Of a DNA stretch of 45,746 nucleotides, positions 1 through 45,647 are shown piece by piece. Position 1 is the stretch's first letter. Every line of letters begins with the position of its first letter. The stretch lies in the sequence record NC_024789.1. One strand, written 5' to 3'. The DNA is from Escherichia phage vB_EcoS_AKS96. The notes under the pieces are model-generated. The model was not told the DNA's origin. It saw nothing but the letters and a program-made list of their open reading frames with translations, and made no database searches. A program made the translations under genes and the position numbers.

Positions 1-516
1 ATGTCAGAAGAGAAAAAAATTCACCAGAAGATTGGTAACTTCAAGGAGCTTTACAATAAGAAGTATGGCGACATTGCCAATCTTAAGATTAACCACAGAT
101 ACACTCCCGAGCAGGTATTCGACATGGCTGTAAGGTATTTCAGCTGGGCTGAAGAGCAGGCAATTAAAGCTATCGAGACAGCAAGCTTTCAGGGTGTCGT
201 AACGGAAAACCTTGTTCACAAGCCGAGGGTATTTACGATAACTGGATTCCAACTTTTCTGCGGCGTTGGTCATAATGCCATCAGTAAATGGCGCTCTTCG
301 CCTGGATTTGATGAGGTGATGGAGTTTGTGGATTCGGTAATCTTTGAGCAGAAGTATCAGCTTGGCGTTAACAACATCGTCAACCCTGGACTGATTGGCA
401 AGGACTTAGGCATCGATAAGCCGCAAGAGGTTAACATCAATAACGCTTCAAATGCCGTAGTGAACGATGAAGAAGCTATGAAGGCTGCGCTTGAATCAAT
501 AGTTGATAAACTTTGA
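1..516 (+). CDS. putative terminase small subunit
   Basis: 171-aa ORF immediately upstream of TerL; position and size only, no diagnostic motif. Confidence 0.4.
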   Translation: MSEEKKIHQKIGNFKELYNKKYGDIANLKINHRYTPEQVFDMAVRYFSWAEEQAIKAIETASFQGVVTENLVHKPRVFTITGFQLFCGVGHNAISKWRSSPGFDEVMEFVDSVIFEQKYQLGVNNIVNPGLIGKDLGIDKPQEVNINNASNAVVNDEEAMKAALESIVDKL

Positions 517-561
517 TATGTTGATATAATTACCCCATTCAATAAACGAGTGGGGTTTTTT

Positions 562-1077
562 ATGTTAGATAGAGCGAAGCCTATGCCGCCTCTGGATTTT
601 CTTAGGGGAATTCTGAGTTACAATCCTGAAACGGGAAAGCTAACGTGGACATCAAAAGTAAGTAGCAAAACCATAATCGGATCCGAGGCTGGGACTTTGC
701 ACAAAGCTAGCGGTCGATATCAAGTACAGATACAAGGGAAGATATACAAGAGCTCAAGGATTGCATTTTATTTGTATTATGGCTTTGAGCCAGTTGGCGC
801 GGTTGACCACATAAATCGTGACCCATCAGACGATAGGATTTCTAATCTTAGGGATGCATCGCTTAACCAAAACGGAATGAATAAGTCTATGATGAGCAAT
901 AATACATCTGGCTACAAAGGTGTTAGCTACTCAAAGAGAAGGAATGAGTATATTGCATATGTGAAAATAAATGGAAAAATGATGTTTGGAGGTTGGTTTA
1001 AGAAAAAAGAAGAAGCAGCAAAGGTGGCGGCATCAATGAGGGAGAGTATACATGGGGAGTTCTGCAATCATGAGTGA
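562..1077 (+). CDS. HNH homing endonuclease with AP2-like C-terminal domain
   Basis: HNH signature VDHINRDPSDDRISNLRDASLNQN; C-terminal GYKGVSYSKRRNEYIAYVKINGK block; start moved from GTG 550 to ATG 562; 3' end overlaps TerL start. Confidence 0.7.
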   Translation: MLDRAKPMPPLDFLRGILSYNPETGKLTWTSKVSSKTIIGSEAGTLHKASGRYQVQIQGKIYKSSRIAFYLYYGFEPVGAVDHINRDPSDDRISNLRDASLNQNGMNKSMMSNNTSGYKGVSYSKRRNEYIAYVKINGKMMFGGWFKKKEEAAKVAASMRESIHGEFCNHE

Positions 1078-2641
1078 AATAATTGTATGGGAAGACTTAA
1101 CATACCCAGAAAAGCTAGCTATAAAGGCACTATCAACTCATAGCTTCGAGGGTTTCTTAAGGGTGTGGTTTCAAATAAGTCAATCTGAGCGTTATATTCC
1201 TAACTGGCACCATAAGTACCTCTGTAGAATCATCGATGAGGTTATTAGCGGTCAACGCAGAGATACAATCATTAACGTAGCTCCCGGGGCCGGAAAAACC
1301 GAGATTACATCCATTCACTTCCCAGTATACTCAATGCTTAAACTAAAGAAGGTTCGCAATCTTAGCCTGTCATTCTCAGATAGCCTCGTGAAGCGTAACT
1401 CTAAACGGGTTCGTGACCTTATCAAATCGACAGAATTCCAGGAGTTGTGGCCCTGCAAGTTTGGCACATGTAAGGATGATGAGATTCAGGTTCTTGATGA
1501 TTCTGGTAAGGTTAAGTTTGAATCAATATCAAAAGCAATTGGCGGTCAGATTACAGGCGCTCGCGGTGGATATATTACAGATAACTATAGCGGCTGTTTG
1601 ATGCTTGATGATGTAGACAAAGCGGATGATATGTTCAGCAAAGTCAGGCGAGAGGCCGTGCACACTCTTCTCAAAAACACCATTCGTTCACGTAGGGCTA
1701 GCAGCGTTAAAGGTAAAGCCACGCCAATTCTGTCAATTCAGCAAAGGCTTCATACTCAGGATTCAACGTGGTTCATGACTTCTGGTGGTATGGGTATCGA
1801 CTTTGATGTAGTGAAGATACCGGCGCTGGTCACTGAAGAATATGTGAATGAACTCCCTGACTGGATTCGTGAGCAGTTCGAGAAGGACGTGCTTTCATCC
1901 GAGTACGTCGAGCGAGATGGTGTTAAGTATTACAGCTACTTCCCGCAGAAGGAATCTGTGCATGACTTGATGGCAATGTGGGACTCAGATCCGTACACAT
2001 TCCTAAGCCAGTACCAACAATCTCCAGTAGCTCTGGGTGGAAACCTGATCAATGTAGATTGGTTTGTTCGCCTCGATGAGAATAACAGACCTCCAGCCAA
2101 GTATGACTACCGATTCATTACGGCTGATACTGCATTAACCACTAAGAGCTATAGTGACTATTCAGTGTTCATGTTATGGGGAGTAAGGGGCAGGAAGGCC
2201 TACGTGCTGGACATGGTTCGGGGTAAGTACGAGAGCCCGGAGCTAGAAAAGACACTTGTTGAATTTGAAGCTAAGCACCGAGCAAACAACAAGACTGACG
2301 GCATCCTTAGGAAGATTATCATAGAGAAAAAGGCTTCAGGTATAGGTTTAATCCAGTCAGCAAGTCGGACGATGAGGACACCTATTGAACCCTACATTCC
2401 TGATGTTGATAAGCTTACGAGGGTTATGAGTGCCCTGCCGCAGGTTAAAGCTGGTAACGTATTCTTACCACAAGAAGCACCATGGCTAAATTCTTTCTTG
2501 TCTGAATTTGCAGCTTTCACTGCTGATTCCACTCACAAACATGACGATATCGTGGACGCATTCACTATGGGTGTTAACCTTGAGCTCAACTTAGCGGATG
2601 ACCCGAGAGCCCGCTTAATGCGACTAGCTGGAGTTAAGTAA
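1052..2641 (+). CDS. terminase large subunit
   Basis: 529 aa; Walker A-like APGAGKTE near N-terminus; RBS agggagag before ATG; position before portal. Confidence 0.8.
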   Translation: MGSSAIMSEIIVWEDLTYPEKLAIKALSTHSFEGFLRVWFQISQSERYIPNWHHKYLCRIIDEVISGQRRDTIINVAPGAGKTEITSIHFPVYSMLKLKKVRNLSLSFSDSLVKRNSKRVRDLIKSTEFQELWPCKFGTCKDDEIQVLDDSGKVKFESISKAIGGQITGARGGYITDNYSGCLMLDDVDKADDMFSKVRREAVHTLLKNTIRSRRASSVKGKATPILSIQQRLHTQDSTWFMTSGGMGIDFDVVKIPALVTEEYVNELPDWIREQFEKDVLSSEYVERDGVKYYSYFPQKESVHDLMAMWDSDPYTFLSQYQQSPVALGGNLINVDWFVRLDENNRPPAKYDYRFITADTALTTKSYSDYSVFMLWGVRGRKAYVLDMVRGKYESPELEKTLVEFEAKHRANNKTDGILRKIIIEKKASGIGLIQSASRTMRTPIEPYIPDVDKLTRVMSALPQVKAGNVFLPQEAPWLNSFLSEFAAFTADSTHKHDDIVDAFTMGVNLELNLADDPRARLMRLAGVK

Positions 2642-21955: not shown

Positions 21956-22001
21956 ACTATAGCAAAGGCTTCTGCTGGAGTCTTTAGCAAATCGTGCTAT
22001 T
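21956..22001 (-). promoter_or_regulatory. conserved box-plus-minus-10 cassette (copy n)
   Basis: minus strand AATAGCACGATTTGCTAAA, 23 bp, TATAGT. Confidence 0.5.
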
Positions 22002-22379: not shown

Positions 22380-22410
22380 TGCTTCCTGATTGGTTATAGT
22401 GCACTCACCG

Positions 22411-22430
22411 GCAGCAGTGGTGCTGCTTTT
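22411..22430 (+). terminator. hairpin with short T-tract (attenuator-like)
   Basis: gcagca-gtgg-tgctgc tttt. Confidence 0.35.
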
Positions 22431-22491
22431 GATGCAAAAAAATGCACCACAAAATCCGGGAGTGAAAATAATTCAACCCCAAAAACTAGAG

Positions 22492-23211
22492 ATGATAGAT
22501 ATGAATCTGATTAATATTGATGAAAACGTAACCATGAGCAGCCTTGAGATTGCTGAATTGACCGGGAAGCGTCACGATAACGTAGTAAGGGATATTAGAG
22601 AAATGCTGAATGATAATGAGATATGCTCAGGATTTAGCCAATCTCACTCCTCAAATTTGAGGAGTGAAATTCAAAATGAATCTCGCGGCTCAAATGTGGA
22701 CCGCCAGATTAAACACCCATTTGAATCTGAGTACAAAAACTCAAGAGGCCAAACTCAGCCATGCTTCAACTTACCATATCGTGAAACCATGATTTTGATG
22801 GTTGGTTACAACAGAAAGGTAGCCGCAAAGATTGTTGACCGCTGGCTACACCTTGAGCGGGAAAACAAGCTCCTTAAAGAGCACATGAAGAAGATGGTTT
22901 CACTTGATGAGGTTAAGGTTTACAAAGTTGAGGCGGCATCAGCAAAGGCTGCACAGCACAGAGCTGAGGATAACTATTACGCAATTGAGAAGTTCATGTT
23001 TAAGAACATGGATAAGTGCGAAAATCCTGCAGAACTTGATGAGCAATACTTCGATGTTAAATTCGAGTCAAATCGTTACCATGACTCTCAAGAGTTGGTT
23101 TACAAGTACCAGGCTCAGCTTGAGGTTGCTTGCGAGAAGTTAAAGGCTAAAGATGATCTGATTGCCAATCTGGTGCATAAAGGCGAACCGCTTAAGCTTG
23201 GTAAAAAGTAA
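22492..23211 (+). CDS. Rha-family phage regulatory protein
   Basis: SSLEIAELTGKRHDNVVRDIREML and FNLPYRETMILMVGY resemble the phage Rha family; start chosen downstream of hairpin. Confidence 0.65.
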   Translation: MIDMNLINIDENVTMSSLEIAELTGKRHDNVVRDIREMLNDNEICSGFSQSHSSNLRSEIQNESRGSNVDRQIKHPFESEYKNSRGQTQPCFNLPYRETMILMVGYNRKVAAKIVDRWLHLERENKLLKEHMKKMVSLDEVKVYKVEAASAKAAQHRAEDNYYAIEKFMFKNMDKCENPAELDEQYFDVKFESNRYHDSQELVYKYQAQLEVACEKLKAKDDLIANLVHKGEPLKLGKK

Positions 23212-29507: not shown

Positions 29508-29981
29508 TTACTCTTTAGCTTTTCGTGCTTCTTCTCTTTCTTTCTTAACCTTTCGCCATGATTTACGCTGCGGCTTGGTTGCTAACTCAGCTTCTGTAAC
29601 AACTCGAAGCATCTGACGCTTCTTGCATCGCAGTGTTAGAGGCTTGCCGTTACCGTCGAACTGTAAATCAGGTCGGCAGAATGTAGCCCTGAACCCCTCG
29701 CCAGTTCGCTTATATCGATTATGCGCAAGCTGTGCGCCGCGAGCTGAAATCATTCCCCGCTTACACCATTCTTCTACAGCCTGGCGCGTAACCTTTAGCT
29801 GCTTAGCTAGATTGGCCTTGCTGCCGTAGAAGTCCAATACAATCTCAAGGCGCGCCCTTAATCCTGCTCTCACTTCATCCTTTAGTACATAGTAACCTGA
29901 TGGACGCTTACGCGGCTTCTTGTCTTCTGTGCGAATTGTTCCGTTGTTACCATTAAGAGTACGCTTGTCAATTGAATCCAT
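29508..29981 (-). CDS. basic DNA-binding protein with HTH-like segment
   Basis: 157 aa, Lys/Arg-rich; LAKQLKVTRQAVEEWCKRG helix-turn-helix-like. Confidence 0.35.
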   Translation of the reverse strand: MDSIDKRTLNGNNGTIRTEDKKPRKRPSGYYVLKDEVRAGLRARLEIVLDFYGSKANLAKQLKVTRQAVEEWCKRGMISARGAQLAHNRYKRTGEGFRATFCRPDLQFDGNGKPLTLRCKKRQMLRVVTEAELATKPQRKSWRKVKKEREEARKAKE

Positions 29982-33270: not shown

Positions 33271-33510
33271 ATGATAGTTGAAAGCGGACGCGCCGCTGTA
33301 TGGGCGCATTGTGGAGAGGCGGGATTGCAGGATGACATCAAGATGATAGGTAAATACTTTGATATTGATGACATATCTGTAGTTTTCAATGGGAAGTTTA
33401 GTTATATGAACCAGCGGCCACGCAAGTATGTAAGAGTTCCAGCAACGCCTAGCCTCGCAATGTATCGCGAGGAAGGTAAGAAGATATTTAAGAAAGGTGC
33501 GAAGAAATGA
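33271..33510 (+). CDS. hypothetical protein
   Basis: 79 aa; alternative upstream starts possible; a 41-aa ORF 33149-33274 precedes it. Confidence 0.35.
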   Translation: MIVESGRAAVWAHCGEAGLQDDIKMIGKYFDIDDISVVFNGKFSYMNQRPRKYVRVPATPSLAMYREEGKKIFKKGAKK

Positions 33511-33764
33511 ATTTACCTGGTCTAGATTTTGCTGAGAGTAAGTATCAGGTTGTGTTTTTTGGTGAGAAGCCTTATCGGAAGATTCCTTTCTCTGAGTGGA
33601 TTCCTCCGGACTACCTCGATGTACTGGTGCAAATTGAGATTGGTAAAGCTGAGTTGATGTACTATTCGCCAGGTTGCAATATGATGATGCCTAGTGAGTA
33701 TTCACCAGCAATTTCTGCTCTAGAAACTGAGTTTCTTGATTACTGGCTAAAAGAAGTAAAATAG
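33507..33764 (+). CDS. hypothetical protein
   Basis: 85 aa, ATGA overlap, stop is the TAG of the next box. Confidence 0.4.
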   Translation: MNLPGLDFAESKYQVVFFGEKPYRKIPFSEWIPPDYLDVLVQIEIGKAELMYYSPGCNMMMPSEYSPAISALETEFLDYWLKEVK

Positions 33765-36572: not shown

Positions 36573-37054
36573 TGAGTATAAAGAATAAAGTTATTGGCGG
36601 GGTCTTAGGCTCCGCTATTGCTATAGCTGTACCATTCCTGAACAAGCATGAGGGCGTTGAGTATAGTCCATACAAAGATGTAGCTGGGGTGTGGACTATT
36701 TGCGCAGGGATTACTGGCCCTGACGTTATTCGTGGCAAGGTTTACACTCAGCGAGATTGCGATGCACTCCTTATGAAGCACCTGTCAATTCATCGCTCCG
36801 CTGTTGATAAAGCCCTGAAGGTTGATGTTCCAGTTAGCACCAGGGCGGCGCTGTACAGTTTTTCATTTAATGTTGGGACCAATGCAATGCGCAACTCAAC
36901 TGTTATCAGACTCATGAATCGCGGCGATATTCGTGGTGGATGTGAGGCGCTATCAATGTGGAATAAAATTAGCGTTGGTGGCAAGAAGGTTGTGAGCAAA
37001 GGCCTGGTTAACAGGCGAAACGCGGAGATTAGGTTATGCGTGTCGGAATTATAA
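36569..37054 (+). CDS. SAR-type endolysin (phage lysozyme family)
   Basis: N-terminal Gly/Ala-rich signal-anchor VIGGVLGSAIAIAV; E-x8-D-x5-T arrangement in HEGVEYSPYKDVAGVWT. Confidence 0.7.
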   Translation: MMSIKNKVIGGVLGSAIAIAVPFLNKHEGVEYSPYKDVAGVWTICAGITGPDVIRGKVYTQRDCDALLMKHLSIHRSAVDKALKVDVPVSTRAALYSFSFNVGTNAMRNSTVIRLMNRGDIRGGCEALSMWNKISVGGKKVVSKGLVNRRNAEIRLCVSEL

Positions 37055-37793: not shown

Positions 37794-39377
37794 TTACCCC
37801 AACAGCCGTGGATTGATATATACCTTGTCACCAATCAGGCAGGTATAGTTTTTATCATCAAGCATCGGCAGTAAGTGGTCTTTAATTTTAGCCATAACAC
37901 CAGCCTGTGACTCGAAAGGTCGAACCTTACGCGCAGCTTCATAAAGTGAACGCAAACCCACAACTCCTTTACTGTTCTTGCCTTGCTTGATAAGGATATC
38001 AATTAACTTGTTCATCTCAGCGTTATCGCCAGCATGACCAGCTGCGTTAGCTGAGGATAAGTAAGTCTTACTAAGTTCTCCAAACATCAACAAAGCCTCT
38101 TGCATGGTTTCCAGTTCAATCTCCCTGGACTTCTGCGGACTACCGCCATTTGGGTTAAACCAGTTACGGATAGTGTGAAGAACTGCAGCAATGCGAATTA
38201 CCTGTTTATCCATTTTACCTAACGCGCCGCGCAGCATTGTGTGTGAATACTTACCGCCATCTGCAAGGTGTGGCTCCATTTCCTGTCGAGCACGGTTAAG
38301 GTGCTTCATTGCTGAGTTACTAATAGTCAACTTCACATCTTGCTCACTCATAATTTCATGAACAAGACGGAAGTAATCAGCCTTCAACGCTCCGTCAATC
38401 GGCTCATATGTTGACTCGCCATTATCATCGACGAAAACACGCTCACCAAGGAATGACTTTTCACGCACAAGCAAGAAACGTTCGGATACACCAATACCGC
38501 GAGCACCAGCATTCATGATTGCGACTATTGTTTCATCCTGCGCAATTACAGAAATACACCCCATAGCAATAAAGCTCATGTTGTTCTCTGCGTTCGCACG
38601 CGCGATAGATACGTTACCAGCATCCCAGGCCTTAAGTACCAGTTCGCTGTTTGTTTTCTTTGTTCCATCACCATAGGTCATGCCCAGCAGTGAGTTGACG
38701 CTCGTCGCCTCATCCGAGATGACAGCGAAGCTACCCTGACGATGGTTAATGCGTGCCAGACCTTCAGGAGTAGTATCAGATACAGGGAATACGATGTCGC
38801 AAAGTTTCTCGAGCTTATCTTCCAGCTCCTCCTTCTCCTCAAACAAACCAGCCATCTCAGAAGGCGACTTCTCCTGCTTCATTTCTTTAGCCAGAGCCGA
38901 CAGCTTGGCCATAATCTTTTTACGGTCACGCTTACGCAGATCGTTTAGTCGCTCAGTCTCTGCAATCATTGGAGCCAGAGACAGCGAGTTAATGGCAGAT
39001 TTACCAGTTGATGGAGGCTGGCTGGTCACTACATACAGTGATGTTGGTTGTTGAGTTCCGTGATACTCAACCGTAAAGCGACCTAACATAGCTGCCGAGA
39101 TGCAACCAAGGAAGTGCATATAAGCAGATGATTCAGGAAACTGAACAGAACGAGCAATGTTGCTTGATAGTTTGCCAACTACATCATAGTCGTTACCAAG
39201 CGAGATAACAGGATACTTGTCGCCAGTAGAATCAATCTCAACCGGAGCTTTCCAGAATGATGCGCTCTGGCGATAACCGTTCGCATTAATAGCAACACGT
39301 AAAGGAGGTAACCCATCCTGAGCGGCAACAGCCATTACTTGTTCAACAGTCAATTTGTCATCATTAAAATCAAACAT
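37794..39377 (-). CDS. large hypothetical protein with possible deviant P-loop; paralog of 42634-43176
   Basis: 527 aa from MFDFNDDKL; termini match the 180-aa paralog; candidate Walker A SQPPSTGKS and Walker B FAVISDE. Confidence 0.5.
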   Translation of the reverse strand: MFDFNDDKLTVEQVMAVAAQDGLPPLRVAINANGYRQSASFWKAPVEIDSTGDKYPVISLGNDYDVVGKLSSNIARSVQFPESSAYMHFLGCISAAMLGRFTVEYHGTQQPTSLYVVTSQPPSTGKSAINSLSLAPMIAETERLNDLRKRDRKKIMAKLSALAKEMKQEKSPSEMAGLFEEKEELEDKLEKLCDIVFPVSDTTPEGLARINHRQGSFAVISDEATSVNSLLGMTYGDGTKKTNSELVLKAWDAGNVSIARANAENNMSFIAMGCISVIAQDETIVAIMNAGARGIGVSERFLLVREKSFLGERVFVDDNGESTYEPIDGALKADYFRLVHEIMSEQDVKLTISNSAMKHLNRARQEMEPHLADGGKYSHTMLRGALGKMDKQVIRIAAVLHTIRNWFNPNGGSPQKSREIELETMQEALLMFGELSKTYLSSANAAGHAGDNAEMNKLIDILIKQGKNSKGVVGLRSLYEAARKVRPFESQAGVMAKIKDHLLPMLDDKNYTCLIGDKVYINPRLLG

Positions 39378-39417
39378 TATCATCTCTCTCTAAATGCCCC
39401 CGAAGGGGCTTGACTAT

Positions 39418-41229: not shown

Positions 41230-41444
41230 GCTACCACCTCAATTTCTTCATTACTAACAACAAACTGTTCACCTTGAAAGATTGCAAGAGTACCATCAAC
41301 ATATACATGATCCTTTAAACTCATCATGTAGAAGCCTTCAATCTCGTAAACTTCCACCTCCTCACCAATCTGATAGCCAAGTTCGGCAAGGCTCATTGAA
41401 TCTTCGTCGTACCTAATTTCGTTGTTGATAATAATCGCTTTCAT
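41226..41444 (-). CDS. hypothetical acidic protein
   Basis: 72 aa, first gene after cassette copy m. Confidence 0.4.
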   Translation of the reverse strand: MKAIIINNEIRYDEDSMSLAELGYQIGEEVEVYEIEGFYMMSLKDHVYVDGTLAIFQGEQFVVSNEEIEVVA

Positions 41445-41472
41445 GTTTCTTCTCCTCTCTGTTGATTAGCAA

Positions 41473-41518
41473 ACTATAGCCAGTCATGGTGGATTTGTCT
41501 TTAGCAAAAAGTGCTATT
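41473..41518 (-). promoter_or_regulatory. conserved box-plus-minus-10 cassette (copy m)
   Basis: minus strand AATAGCACTTTTTGCTAAA, 23 bp, TATAGT. Confidence 0.5.
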
Positions 41519-41529
41519 CGTCAGATTTA

Positions 41530-41650
41530 TGGATTGTTGCAGGCATTGCAATGATTCGCAGTACTATTGCATCTATAGAAATATTGCATCTGTCGCAATG
41601 ATTTTCTGGACTGTTGCGAATTTAGCAATGATTGATGGATTGATGGAATG
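41530..41650. repeat. iteron-like short direct repeats
   Basis: GCAATGATT x3 (41548, 41595, 41625), ATTGCATCT x2 (41567, 41583), TGGAYTGTTGC x2, tandem ATTGATGG x2. Confidence 0.6.
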
Positions 41651-41820
41651 AAAGGAAGGGCGTATCAACTAGTTGGTTGGTTTTAGCTTTCACAAGGAGC
41701 TTTCCTTTATGTACGCGTTATGGCTTGTTCAACCGTGTAGAGAAATTGCCATATTTACGCCATCCACGCCAGTTTACGCGCTGGTTACAAAATAAATCCC
41801 TTATATAACAACCCTTTAGA

Positions 41821-41843
41821 TTTATTATTATTATTATTATTAT
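41821..41843. repeat. (TTA)n microsatellite in AT-rich intergenic region
   Basis: about 7 TTA units; shorter counterpart at 22129-22140. Confidence 0.7.
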
Positions 41844-42060
41844 ATATGTTATTCCGTAACCATGATTATCTGAGATATTGGTGATATTTTTTTGATATTG
41901 CGCGGCGCATAAAGATTTAGATAAAGAGATAGGGATGCAAGCGGGGTGGCGAAAATGGCTTAACAGACCATAACGGCAATAACAGCCTTGATACGACTAG
42001 CGTCAGCATGTAACAATTTAGCATAACGTGCGATTACCGAGTTGAACGTGTAAATAACGC

Positions 42061-42088
42061 TTGCGACATTCACCAATCATGGTAAGAT
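42061..42088 (+). promoter_or_regulatory. candidate sigma70-type promoter for plus operon 42119 onward
   Basis: TTGCGA, 16 bp, TAAGAT, then leader aaacgagagga. Confidence 0.4.
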
Positions 42089-42118
42089 GCTCTCACACCA
42101 AACGAGAGGAGTAGTAAA

Positions 42119-42634
42119 ATGAGTAATACAATTCGTGAAGCAAACCCGACACTTGGCGACCTGGTGCGGCACCTTGTTAAGATGGCTCTTAATTCAGAGG
42201 ATGGAAGCGTAACAGTTCCCGTTAAGTTGCTTTACAAGAATCTTTACGGAGAAATTGATAACGACTATGTAGCAGCTGACTTTAGACCTGGCGGCAAATA
42301 TTCACTTCCAAAGCTTAAGGCTTCCTATGTTTCAAATACAGCCAGCAGAATGCAGGAAGTTAAAGACGCAGATAAGCGCGCAAGGTTCTCTTGTGGAGAG
42401 ATGGAGTATAATGGTGATGAGCATTATTGCGTAAAAATCACAATGGTCAACGGTGCTGTTAAGAATGGAACCCGAGCTAAGACAAACAGTCAATTAGAGG
42501 AGAAAGCGGTAAGCGAGTTTAAAGCTAGGCTACTTAAGCTTTCCCCCAGCGTAGCAGGAATGAGTGGAGATGAACTGAAGGGTGCGGTAGCTATGATTAA
42601 CGCATATCAGGAAATGATTAAGGAGACTAAATAA
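42119..42634 (+). CDS. hypothetical protein
   Basis: 171 aa, first gene of operon, gagagga RBS. Confidence 0.45.
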   Translation: MSNTIREANPTLGDLVRHLVKMALNSEDGSVTVPVKLLYKNLYGEIDNDYVAADFRPGGKYSLPKLKASYVSNTASRMQEVKDADKRARFSCGEMEYNGDEHYCVKITMVNGAVKNGTRAKTNSQLEEKAVSEFKARLLKLSPSVAGMSGDELKGAVAMINAYQEMIKETK

Positions 42635-43176
42635 TGTTTGATTTCAACGAGGATAAACTTACTCATGAGCAGGTGTTAGCGGTAGCAGCGGCAGACGATC
42701 TGCCCCCATTACGAGTATCAATAATTGCAAATGGTTATCGACAATCTGCAAATATATGGCCTGAGCTGGATAAGGTCAAAGATTTTGAACTAGACAGTGG
42801 AACTTTAAAGATTACTGAAATACTCATCAAGCAAGGGATGAACTCCAAAGGCGTTGTTGGTCTCAGGTCACTATATGAGGCGGCACGCAAAGTTAAGCCA
42901 TTCGATGGGCGAAATGGAGTAATGGAGGAGATTAAGGAAGTCATCATTCCAAATCTGGATAAGCTTGGCTATGCATGCCTAATTGGCGATAAGATTTATA
43001 TCAACCCTAGATTGCTGGATGGCAAGCAGGACTGGACTTACAAGGTCAAGCCACTGGAAGATGATTTCAACATCGAGGATTGTGAGAAGGTTGTCGACGA
43101 GATTATTGTCAAGGCTATCGATGAGCAGATCGAGAAGCTCAAGCGAAAGAAGAAATATCTCCTGACCGGTAAATAG
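42634..43176 (+). CDS. hypothetical protein, short paralog of 37794-39377
   Basis: 180 aa; N-terminus MFDFNEDKLTHEQVLAVAAADDLPPLRV and internal KGVVGLRSLYEAARKV...CLIGDKIYINPRLL match the large protein. Confidence 0.5.
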   Translation: MFDFNEDKLTHEQVLAVAAADDLPPLRVSIIANGYRQSANIWPELDKVKDFELDSGTLKITEILIKQGMNSKGVVGLRSLYEAARKVKPFDGRNGVMEEIKEVIIPNLDKLGYACLIGDKIYINPRLLDGKQDWTYKVKPLEDDFNIEDCEKVVDEIIVKAIDEQIEKLKRKKKYLLTGK

Positions 43177-45369: not shown

Positions 45370-45445
45370 GTTCTGCTGGCGTAACAGGATAACGCAGAGA
45401 CCTCCTAAGTCTCAGTTACTGGTTCGAGTCCAGTGCGGAACACCA
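45370..45445 (+). tRNA. tRNA-Arg (anticodon CCU), CCA encoded
   Basis: hand-folded cloverleaf: 7-bp acceptor stem with one G-U, 4-bp D stem, 5-bp anticodon stem with loop CTCCTAA, T-loop TTCGAGT, 3' ACCA. Confidence 0.7.
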
Positions 45446-45461
45446 AACATGGAGCATCCTA

Positions 45462-45647
45462 GTGAATAACTACGAAGTCCGTTTAACTTCCCGCCTAATG
45501 GGTCGGCAATGCAAATCTTGCCAGCAATCCTACGAAGGTAGGTTCATTGCTAAAAGCCCTGAAGAAGCAGTTGCAGCCGCAAAGGCAGCATTTAAGATTG
45601 ACCTGACAGTCCACAAAGTCAGCGTTGATAAAGTATCCCTCGTTTGA
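45462..45647 (+). CDS. hypothetical protein
   Basis: 61-aa ORF followed by terminator; weak RBS. Confidence 0.3.
   Translation: MNNYEVRLTSRLMGRQCKSCQQSYEGRFIAKSPEEAVAAAKAAFKIDLTVHKVSVDKVSLV

Follow-up and report, generated by a model that had tools for sequence, protein, structure and literature searches.

The T1-like phage vB_EcoS_AKS96 (Drexlerviridae, Rogunavirus; record NC_024789.1) has a complete genome of 45,746 bp, here called the window since it is the whole stretch of DNA that was analyzed. A non-coding gap at 41445-42118, 674 bp in length, separates a minus-strand gene that starts at 41444 from a plus-strand gene that starts at 42119. The leftward operon comprises small genes followed by a gene for a DUF3987 helicase (37794-39383, minus strand). 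Within the gap lie four 15-bp dyads of the form TTGC-N7-GCAA, and it is this array that is considered here. An original prediction, made from the letters of the sequence alone, had described a large divergent non-coding region with an iteron-like repeat array, resembling a replication origin or a multi-site operator. The region and all of its repeat words (GCAATGATT three times, ATTGCATCT twice, TGGAYTGTTGC twice and tandem GATTGATG) are present, the words essentially where they had been placed. The main context that was missed is that T1-family genomes are cut here for headful packaging and that 41500-41518 is a known promoter element. We tentatively assign the dyads to the packaging-initiation (pac) region, as accessory components. 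The features that bear on the array are the following.

41473-41501, minus strand: leftward promoter of the minus operon from a promoter scan, with -10 TATAGT at 41473-41478 and -35-like AAGACA at 41496-41501
41500-41518, minus strand: T1-family promoter-associated element AAATAGCAC-N3-TTGCTAAA, with core TAGC-N7-GCTA at 41502-41516, facing the minus operon
41523-41536, plus strand: near-invariant linker AGATTTATGGATTG between this regulator element and dyad 1
41537-41551, no strand assigned: dyad 1, TTGCaggcattGCAA, in outer unit GATTGTTGC-N7-GCAATGATT (41532-41556)
41567-41581, no strand assigned: dyad 2, TTGCatctataGAAA, with a mutated right arm (GAAA); most relatives have an intact ATTGC-N7-GCAAT
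41584-41598, no strand assigned: dyad 3, TTGCatctgtcGCAA, abutting dyad 2; the junction in relatives is GCAATATTGC
41614-41628, no strand assigned: dyad 4, TTGCgaatttaGCAA, in outer unit GACTGTTGC-N7-GCAATGATT (41609-41633)
41627-41660, plus strand: C-free G/A/T tract, with 2.8 copies of GATTGATG at 41630-41651 and an invariant GAATGA(A) at 41646-41652
41661-41685, plus strand: candidate first packaging cut (pac cleavage) for rightward packaging, placed by homology to the termini of three relatives

The dyads start at 41537, 41567, 41584 and 41614, with start-to-start spacings of 30, 17 and 30 nt, and the repeat words are overlapping fragments of these four sites rather than independent elements. 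Copies of GCAATGATT lie at 41548, 41595 and 41625 and nowhere else on either strand of the 45.7-kb genome, ATTGCATCT is found at 41566 and 41583, and TGGAYTGTTGC at 41530 and 41607; outer dyads 1 and 4 have in common a 25-31-nt unit, GATTGTTGC-N7-GCAATGATT. The term iteron-like direct repeats does not fit, the sites being dyads at 30/17/30 and not regular direct iterons. The pattern TTGC-N7-GCAA has seven matches in the whole window against 1.7 expected, and three dyads inside 92 bp were seen in none of 500 first-order Markov shuffles, where the largest cluster held two (in 3 of 500). Scored with an 18-base consensus, array sites reach 18, 17 and 15, and the best site elsewhere in the genome 14. 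High-scoring dyads and GCAATGATT are confined to this one locus in the genome, the single-locus distribution looked for in a pac site. No stem is apparent, as fold z-scores are -0.5 for both DNA and RNA and neither strand beats its shuffled controls; with these scores and nothing meaningful in Rfam at a permissive threshold, a non-coding RNA in the gap was rejected. A small open reading frame (ORF) was likewise rejected as gap content, the 39-aa ORF annotated in AHP24 having only 22 codons in this phage and large indels in relatives. T1- and TLS-like phages conserve another TTGC-N7-GCAA, some 490 nt ahead of terS, which was dismissed as a coding coincidence of CxxC codons; at T1 7944, at homologous positions in L043-L060 and at 45462-45647 in the window it encodes the CxxC of a small zinc-ribbon-like protein.

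Relatives were recovered by a pattern scan of IMG/VR and GenBank, and the alignment used throughout comprises 15 distinct sequences from several subfamilies. Phage records matching the intergenic DNA number 132, with 92.5-94.6% identity to C119, phiKP26, AHP24, AHS24 and Opt-79-type phages. The array, usually with four intact dyads, is found in Rogunavirinae, Braunvirinae (Rtp, SU57, MSK), Nouzillyvirus (ESCO41, TH27) and others. T1 and its close relatives (Tunavirinae) have two dyads, 30 nt apart, and one metagenomic group likewise has two. The dyad motif and the 30-bp spacing are common to Tunavirinae, Rogunavirinae, Braunvirinae, Nouzillyvirus and metagenomic relatives. Conservation of repeat sequence and spacing in related phages, on which the earlier proposal had staked itself, is borne out: the 150 nt from the TAGC element to GAATGA contain zero indels in the 15 relatives, with about 14% of positions variable. 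The right-hand third of the gap is rich in indels. Dyad arms consist of 97% consensus cells (25 of 32 positions invariant) and the N7 spacers of 80% (6 of 28 invariant), and the arms are conserved beyond all 20,000 random position sets (permutation p<5e-5). Changes in AHP24 and UDF157lw affect a single arm of a dyad and bring no compensation. The right-most dyad is followed by TGATTG and a purine-rich tract in every TTGC-type lineage examined, T1 included, and the gap core (41497-41850) is about 70% conserved even where the flanking genes of relatives fail to align. Because the arms are conserved, the spacers variable, the fold absent and the arm changes non-compensatory, the dyads have the look of duplex sites, their halves 11 bp (one helical turn) apart, at which a dimeric sequence-specific protein binds, and not that of an RNA, a hairpin or a peptide. 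Dyad symmetry, a length of 14-20 bp, conserved arms and a variable centre are also what is looked for in operator-type sites.

T1-like phages are headful packagers (PMC11447400). Their pac sequence has not been identified (PMC11447400, PMC7718038), and the pac of TLS has been mapped by restriction digestion to the homologous region (PMC11447400); that pac lies within the gap, like the existence of the TAGC-N7-GCTA element, is already known. Measured from the start of the conserved GAATGAA, PhageTerm termini lie 15 nt after it in UDF157lw, 21 nt in MSK and 39 nt in SU57, and these transfer to 41661-41685 in the window, 10-35 nt right of the array. The record of UDF157lw had been rearranged according to its PhageTerm terminus (PMC10838988), the MSK terminus is at position 36,862 in the forward direction (p=1.6e-9; PMC8421802), and the SU57 start was set at a PhageTerm peak coinciding with an abrupt change in coverage (PMC7718038). 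The T1 record has a 2.8-kb terminal-repeat feature at its start and its position 1 lies inside the first dyad, position 1 of Rtp is the centre of dyad 2, and that of ESCO41 is at the first dyad. The ends of the TH27 record were rejected as physical ends, since they are a 402-nt assembly overlap. On lambda DNA, T1 starts packaging between genes P and Q; this interval holds no TTGC-N7-GCAA, and its best site scores 14/18, in ninG, so that the comparison is not informative. The window has the terminase looked for in a headful packager, with a small subunit of the P22 gp3 family, expected to be the pac-recognition protein, and a large subunit.

1-516, plus strand: small terminase (TerS), P22 gp3 family (PHROG 606 at 3e-60; Pfam GP3_package)
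1052-2641, plus strand: large terminase (TerL), in the gene order TerS, HNH gene, TerL

The HNH endonuclease gene between them (550-1077, plus strand) overlaps the start of TerL, and no gene stands there in T1 or TLS.

Our preferred reading, to which we give somewhat less than even confidence, is that the dyads form an accessory or architectural array in the pac region and are not the terminase recognition sequence itself. A role in this region is best supported because the geometry from regulator element to cut zone is fixed, the locus is unique and the termini converge, and it is from these features that we infer the array's part in packaging initiation. The regulator element, dyads and G/A/T tract would together make up a nucleoprotein region of fixed geometry on the upstream, non-packaged side of pac, with array-bound proteins marking and shaping the DNA. 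Terminase, with its P22-gp3-type small subunit and its large subunit, would make the first cut about 45-70 bp right of the last dyad, near 41661-41685, and would then package rightward by a headful mechanism.

As the terminase recognition sequence, the G/A/T tract and AGATTTATGGATTG appear to be better candidates than the dyads. The linker AGATTTATGGATTG is similar to the core of P22 pac and to the sequence found where TLS pac was mapped. It has the 8-mer AGATTTAT in common with the P22 pac core (P22 pac as quoted in PMC11447400), a match of which by our own estimate about 0.3 are expected by chance and which alone is not significant, and it agrees with 11 of the 14 bases of AGATTTTGTGATTG at the mapped TLS position. 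The G/A/T tract is variable in sequence and C-free in 12 of the 15 relatives, and a C-free run of 34 nt is not exceptional in this genome. Just left of the tract, Dam-encoding phages (T1, TLS-like) carry clusters of two to three GATC sites, in many cases in the form (A/C)GATCA(C/G) and at intervals of about 14-15 nt; those of T1 (L003 and L002), TLS (L028 and L027) and L059 (830-880) are reminiscent of the methylation-sensitive hexamers of P1 pac. The gap of the window has no GATC, and no dam homologue was found in a tblastn comparison of the window with T1.

The pac of SPP1 (pacL-pacC-pacR) and the cosB of lambda (R elements and an IHF site) resemble the array in having, at one locus, short repeats of fixed spacing beside the first cut and in unidirectional packaging, and the pacL repeats are on the non-packaged side, as in this phage. 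They differ in that theirs are direct boxes, whereas here 15-bp dyads do not co-vary with TerS and the packaging role would be assigned by homology. P22 is similar to the window in its gp3-family small terminase, and AGATTTAT of its pac core stands beside dyad 1, near-invariant in the relatives; however, P22 pac is a single asymmetric 22-bp site in gene 3, whereas the region in the window is intergenic, multi-partite and 4.2 kb upstream of terS. In the searchable literature, outside which the original T1 and Rtp genome papers fall, no account was found of the four-dyad array, of the strict spacing of the dyads, of how they relate to mapped termini or of the cassette slot described below, and a literature search with motif strings returned unrelated primer matches only.

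Several points weigh against a packaging role for the array. The interval 41661-41685 is transferred from relatives, PhageTerm can be noisy on pac phages, and SU57 has several candidate ends; the record starts of T1 and Rtp may have been chosen on other grounds. Dyad symmetry is unusual for ring-shaped small terminases. TLS, L058 and L059 have identical TerS proteins and yet their slot contents differ, and UDF157lw has one-arm mutations in dyads 1-3 with its terminus unmoved. Because the TLS clade pairs one and the same TerS with different dyad cassettes, there is no co-variation between the two, and the co-evolution with the small terminase looked for in a pac sequence is not seen. Since the UDF157lw terminus is kept despite mutated arms, intact dyads do not set the cut. 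TerS of T1 is 59% and that of dyad-less TLS 49% identical to TerS of the window, so that the two are about equally diverged. The occupant of the array would be a dimeric protein, perhaps encoded by the phage or perhaps a transcription factor of the host; it is unlikely to be the small terminase on its own.

The TLS-like phages are without TTGC dyads, and in six of them the slot is filled, at a distance of 10 nt from the TAGC element, by a tandem pair of TAGACC-N4-GGTCTA palindromes. The arms of this double box are invariant and its centre is GATT or GTTT (last ~120 nt of TLS NC_009540, L028/L068; L069-L073), and among 2.9 million viral contigs it occurs only in these T1-like phages. The E. coli K-12 nemR promoter contains TAGACCGACTGGTCTA (L065:2984-2999), which matches the palindrome of the TLS-like phages and is reportedly the NemR operator (Umezawa et al. 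2008). This operator is not in the window, and the TTGC-N7-GCAA dyads are not NemR boxes. In L059 (745-800), compared with TLS/L054, a segment of about 50 nt with the boxes is swapped for one of the same length carrying two GTTC-N8-GAAC dyads, with flanks 93% identical, and contig L058 is without the double box. From these sequences the slot behaves like a swappable cassette. An extension of this idea, unlikely on present evidence, is that the stretch from regulated promoter to cut is a fixed-length slot for operators of host transcription factors, with boxes matching NemR in TLS-like phages and up to four TTGC dyads in T1-, Rtp- and Rogue-like ones.

A search for the binding protein gave negative results of several kinds. 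No ORF within 7 kb on either side, DUF7174 included, follows the dyad type at 16 loci; neither the DUF3987 helicase, which even in its C-terminal domain is closer to TLS than to T1, nor the Cro-like regulator does so. In TLS the TAGC-N7-GCTA elements are the same, the Cro-like regulator is similar and the dyads are entirely different. By presence and absence over whole genomes, only an 85-aa protein (33507-33764) is found in the window and T1 but not in TLS, and it has no DNA-binding signature. No helix-turn-helix (HTH) protein is among the neighbouring early genes, the sole HTH regulator found being the Cro-like protein, whose site type is TAGC-N7-GCTA. Compared by BLAST with 5,426 E. coli genomes the array has no match, and two ATTGC-N7-GCAAT dyads gave, across 185,579 species, chance or coding matches only, such as acrB in three enterobacteria. 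CytR, PutA, MarR/SlyA, Fis, IHF, Fur and sigma54 were rejected as host binders on spacing or base mismatches.

The alternative that survives best, which we regard as possible though doubtful, is a purely transcriptional operator array that tunes the leftward promoter or early transcription, its proximity to pac being incidental and its regulator either a host factor or the Cro-like Rtp52/ST23 homologue. It is with this idea that the promoter-associated element becomes important. A repeat of this kind, aaATAGCACnnnTTGnTAAAA, was described for TLS and noted in T1, Rtp and Rogue1 (PMC11447400). The element at 41500-41518 is a bona fide copy: it is invariant in the 15 relatives and, read the way the operon is transcribed, its AAATAGCAC-N3-TTGCTAAA is followed after about 22 nt by a TATAGT-type -10. 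The inverted repeat is reportedly ascribed, in the Rtp genome paper, to the Cro-like regulator Rtp52, a homologue of which (Rtp52/ST23) is encoded at 29508-29981 in the window. The 12 matches of TAGC-N7-GCTA in the window comprise 10 promoter-associated copies, one reversed copy (21985) and one coding chance match (10335), and the promoter-associated copies face their gene, about 22 nt upstream of a TATAGT/TATATT -10. Sites of AAATAGCAC-N3-TTGCTAAA lie at 21985, 24515, 32391, 35606, 39665, 39863, 40825, 41502, 43174 and 44023, with a degenerate one at 42019, and a conserved CATCGAAACGA leader accompanies the -10 of these elements genome-wide. With 22-23 nt the gap exceeds what a normal -35 allows and points to an activator-dependent class of promoters, and the leftward promoter would fall in this regulated class because 41500-41518 shares the layout of the genome-wide elements.

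The four dyads have the classic geometry of sites for HTH dimers, with conserved arms and variable spacers, and stand at an invariant 35-nt spacing from this activator-type element. Their half-site TTGC is one base from the regulator half-site TAGC, with the N7 spacing alike, so that both follow an xTWGC-N7-GCWAx plan, and T1 (46143) and L041 have elements that are canonical except for a TTGC in place of TAGC in one arm. The TLS-like slot, moreover, holds two near-perfect copies of the E. coli nemR-promoter palindrome. The half-site architecture also resembles that of repressor operators such as lambda OR-OL. Nevertheless, the dyads differ from the aaATAGCACnnnTTGnTAAAA repeat in half-site and in flanks, have no -10 downstream, and form a cluster at one locus rather than standing one per promoter. 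Measured from the leftward start site they stand at about -79 to -156, clear of any core promoter, with over 400 bp between them and the rightward promoter, and no host operator of their form emerged from the E. coli BLAST or the 185,579-species scan. The Cro-like regulator is a poor occupant, given that TLS keeps the elements and a similar regulator yet has different dyads. The original suggestion of a multi-site operator thus stands as far as dyad-symmetric sites with conserved arms and variable spacers are concerned, and fails on the overlap with a core promoter and on a cognate regulator, neither of which was found.

Next comes a replication origin, which we consider decidedly unlikely. 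In this account the dyads would act as lambda-type iterons for initiator dimers, and TACGCC repeats and a (TTA)n block would form an unwinding region that loads the DUF3987 helicase and primase. The elements concerned lie to the right of the array, together with the rightward promoter; the TACGC repeats, the (TTA)7 and the sigma70-like promoter had all been correctly picked out beforehand.

41756-41780, plus strand: three TACGCC-type direct repeats (TACGCC, CACGCC, TACGCG) at 41756, 41765 and 41775, spaced 9-10 bp
41790-41860, no strand assigned: AT-rich block, 82% A+T, with (TTA)7 at 41822-41842 and promoter-like hexamers on both strands
42019-42033, minus strand: degenerate second TAGC-N7-GCTA copy, TAGCataacgtGCGA, 84% identical to 41500-41518
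42061-42088, plus strand: sigma70-type promoter of the rightward early operon, read from sequence as TTGCGA, 16 nt, TGg-TAAGAT

Four dyads with an 82% A+T block and direct repeats phased at 10 bp do resemble the lambda ori, where a dimeric protein likewise has four dyad-symmetric sites, 15-19 bp in length, close to an AT-rich block, and the origin of T1-like phages has not been found or defined in the literature (PMC11447400). The persistence of the core 41497-41850 beyond aligning flanking genes is also on this side. A further TACGCC-type word lies at 41712, and similar phased TACGC words are found in T1, Rtp and ESCO41. The block with (TTA)7, 160-220 bp from the array, is equally readable as promoter DNA. 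Within it ATTATTATTATTA is invariant in all aligned relatives, the TTA copy number ranging from 4 to 7 or more, and the (TTA)7, as the core of the block, supplies overlapping TATTAT -10-like hexamers on both strands; this microsatellite is, as far as sequence can tell, not junk. At the position of the rightward promoter relatives keep TTGAC(A/T)-N17-TAnnAT.

Against an origin stand the absence of an adjacent initiator gene, a helicase whose sequence, C-terminal domain included, is nearer to that of TLS, which is without TTGC dyads, than to that of T1, which has them, and so does not follow the dyads, and a truncated helicase paralogue (42634-43176) that is absent from both T1 and TLS. The spacing of 30/17/30 is irregular, the same-orientation, regular repeats looked for in an origin are not there, no good DnaA box was seen by eye in the gap (no pattern scan was made), and the slot is swapped between near-identical TLS-like phages. 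GC skew, proposed as a check, tracks only the direction of transcription. As compared with lambda ori and OR-OL, the window is without an O-like initiator or an adjacent repressor gene, shows no promoter overlap and has irregular spacing. The origin half of the original prediction is accordingly not supported.

That the dyads are the small terminase recognition sequence, and so pac in the strict sense, is quite improbable. The evidence of location is the same as for an accessory array, and multi-site arrays are typical of terminase recognition, as at lambda cosB, SPP1 pacL and P1 pac. Nonetheless, the identical TerS beside different dyads in the TLS clade, the unchanged UDF157lw terminus beside degraded dyads and the near-equal divergence of TerS in T1 and dyad-less TLS all speak against it, and the G/A/T tract and the AGATTT-GATTG motif are more widespread, TLS included. 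Very improbable, finally, are titration or decoy sites, by which replicated phage DNA would soak up a host regulator and reprogram host genes with no local function, for although the nemR-promoter palindromes show that host-type sites fit the slot and several sites on a genome present in many copies would make for efficient titration, gapless spacing to neighbouring elements in 15 relatives is not expected of decoys and no host factor for TTGC-N7-GCAA turned up.

The genes to the right of the gap begin with one that, on the preferred reading of an accessory array in the pac region, would open the left end of first-headful chromosomes.

42119-42634, plus strand: DUF7174 protein, first rightward gene, from Pfam searches

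DUF7174 is the first gene past the pac region in the window, TLS (589-1038), Rtp (546-1064) and SU57 (463-1005); in T1 that place is taken by ST77 (539-1114), which has a sub-threshold DUF7174 match and a weak AcrF2-like one. The second rightward gene (42634-43176, plus strand; 180 aa) is the truncated DUF3987 helicase paralogue, which retains about the first 45 and the last 90 residues and adds an acidic/basic tail of its own; through its terminal domains it might act as a competitor or a regulator of the helicase. A gene for a Rha-family regulatory protein (22390-23211, plus strand) and a tRNA-Arg(CCU) gene (45370-45445, plus strand) look ordinary.

T1-like phages often contaminate laboratories and are considered for therapy and biocontrol. 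The array gives them a testable conserved architecture at the start of packaging, from regulator element to up to four dyads, G/A/T tract and cut, which would aid consistent genome start coordinates, packaging-competent vectors or transducing plasmids, the prediction of generalized-transduction risk and the finding of the dyad occupant. The nemR-palindrome pairs of TLS-like phages, whose boxes match what is reportedly the operator of NemR, a sensor of electrophiles and bleach, suggest that virulent phages may connect stress regulators of their hosts to the control region. If the slot does serve for host operators, packaging initiation or the early-to-middle switch would be coupled to the physiological state of the host, or a host regulator would be titrated.

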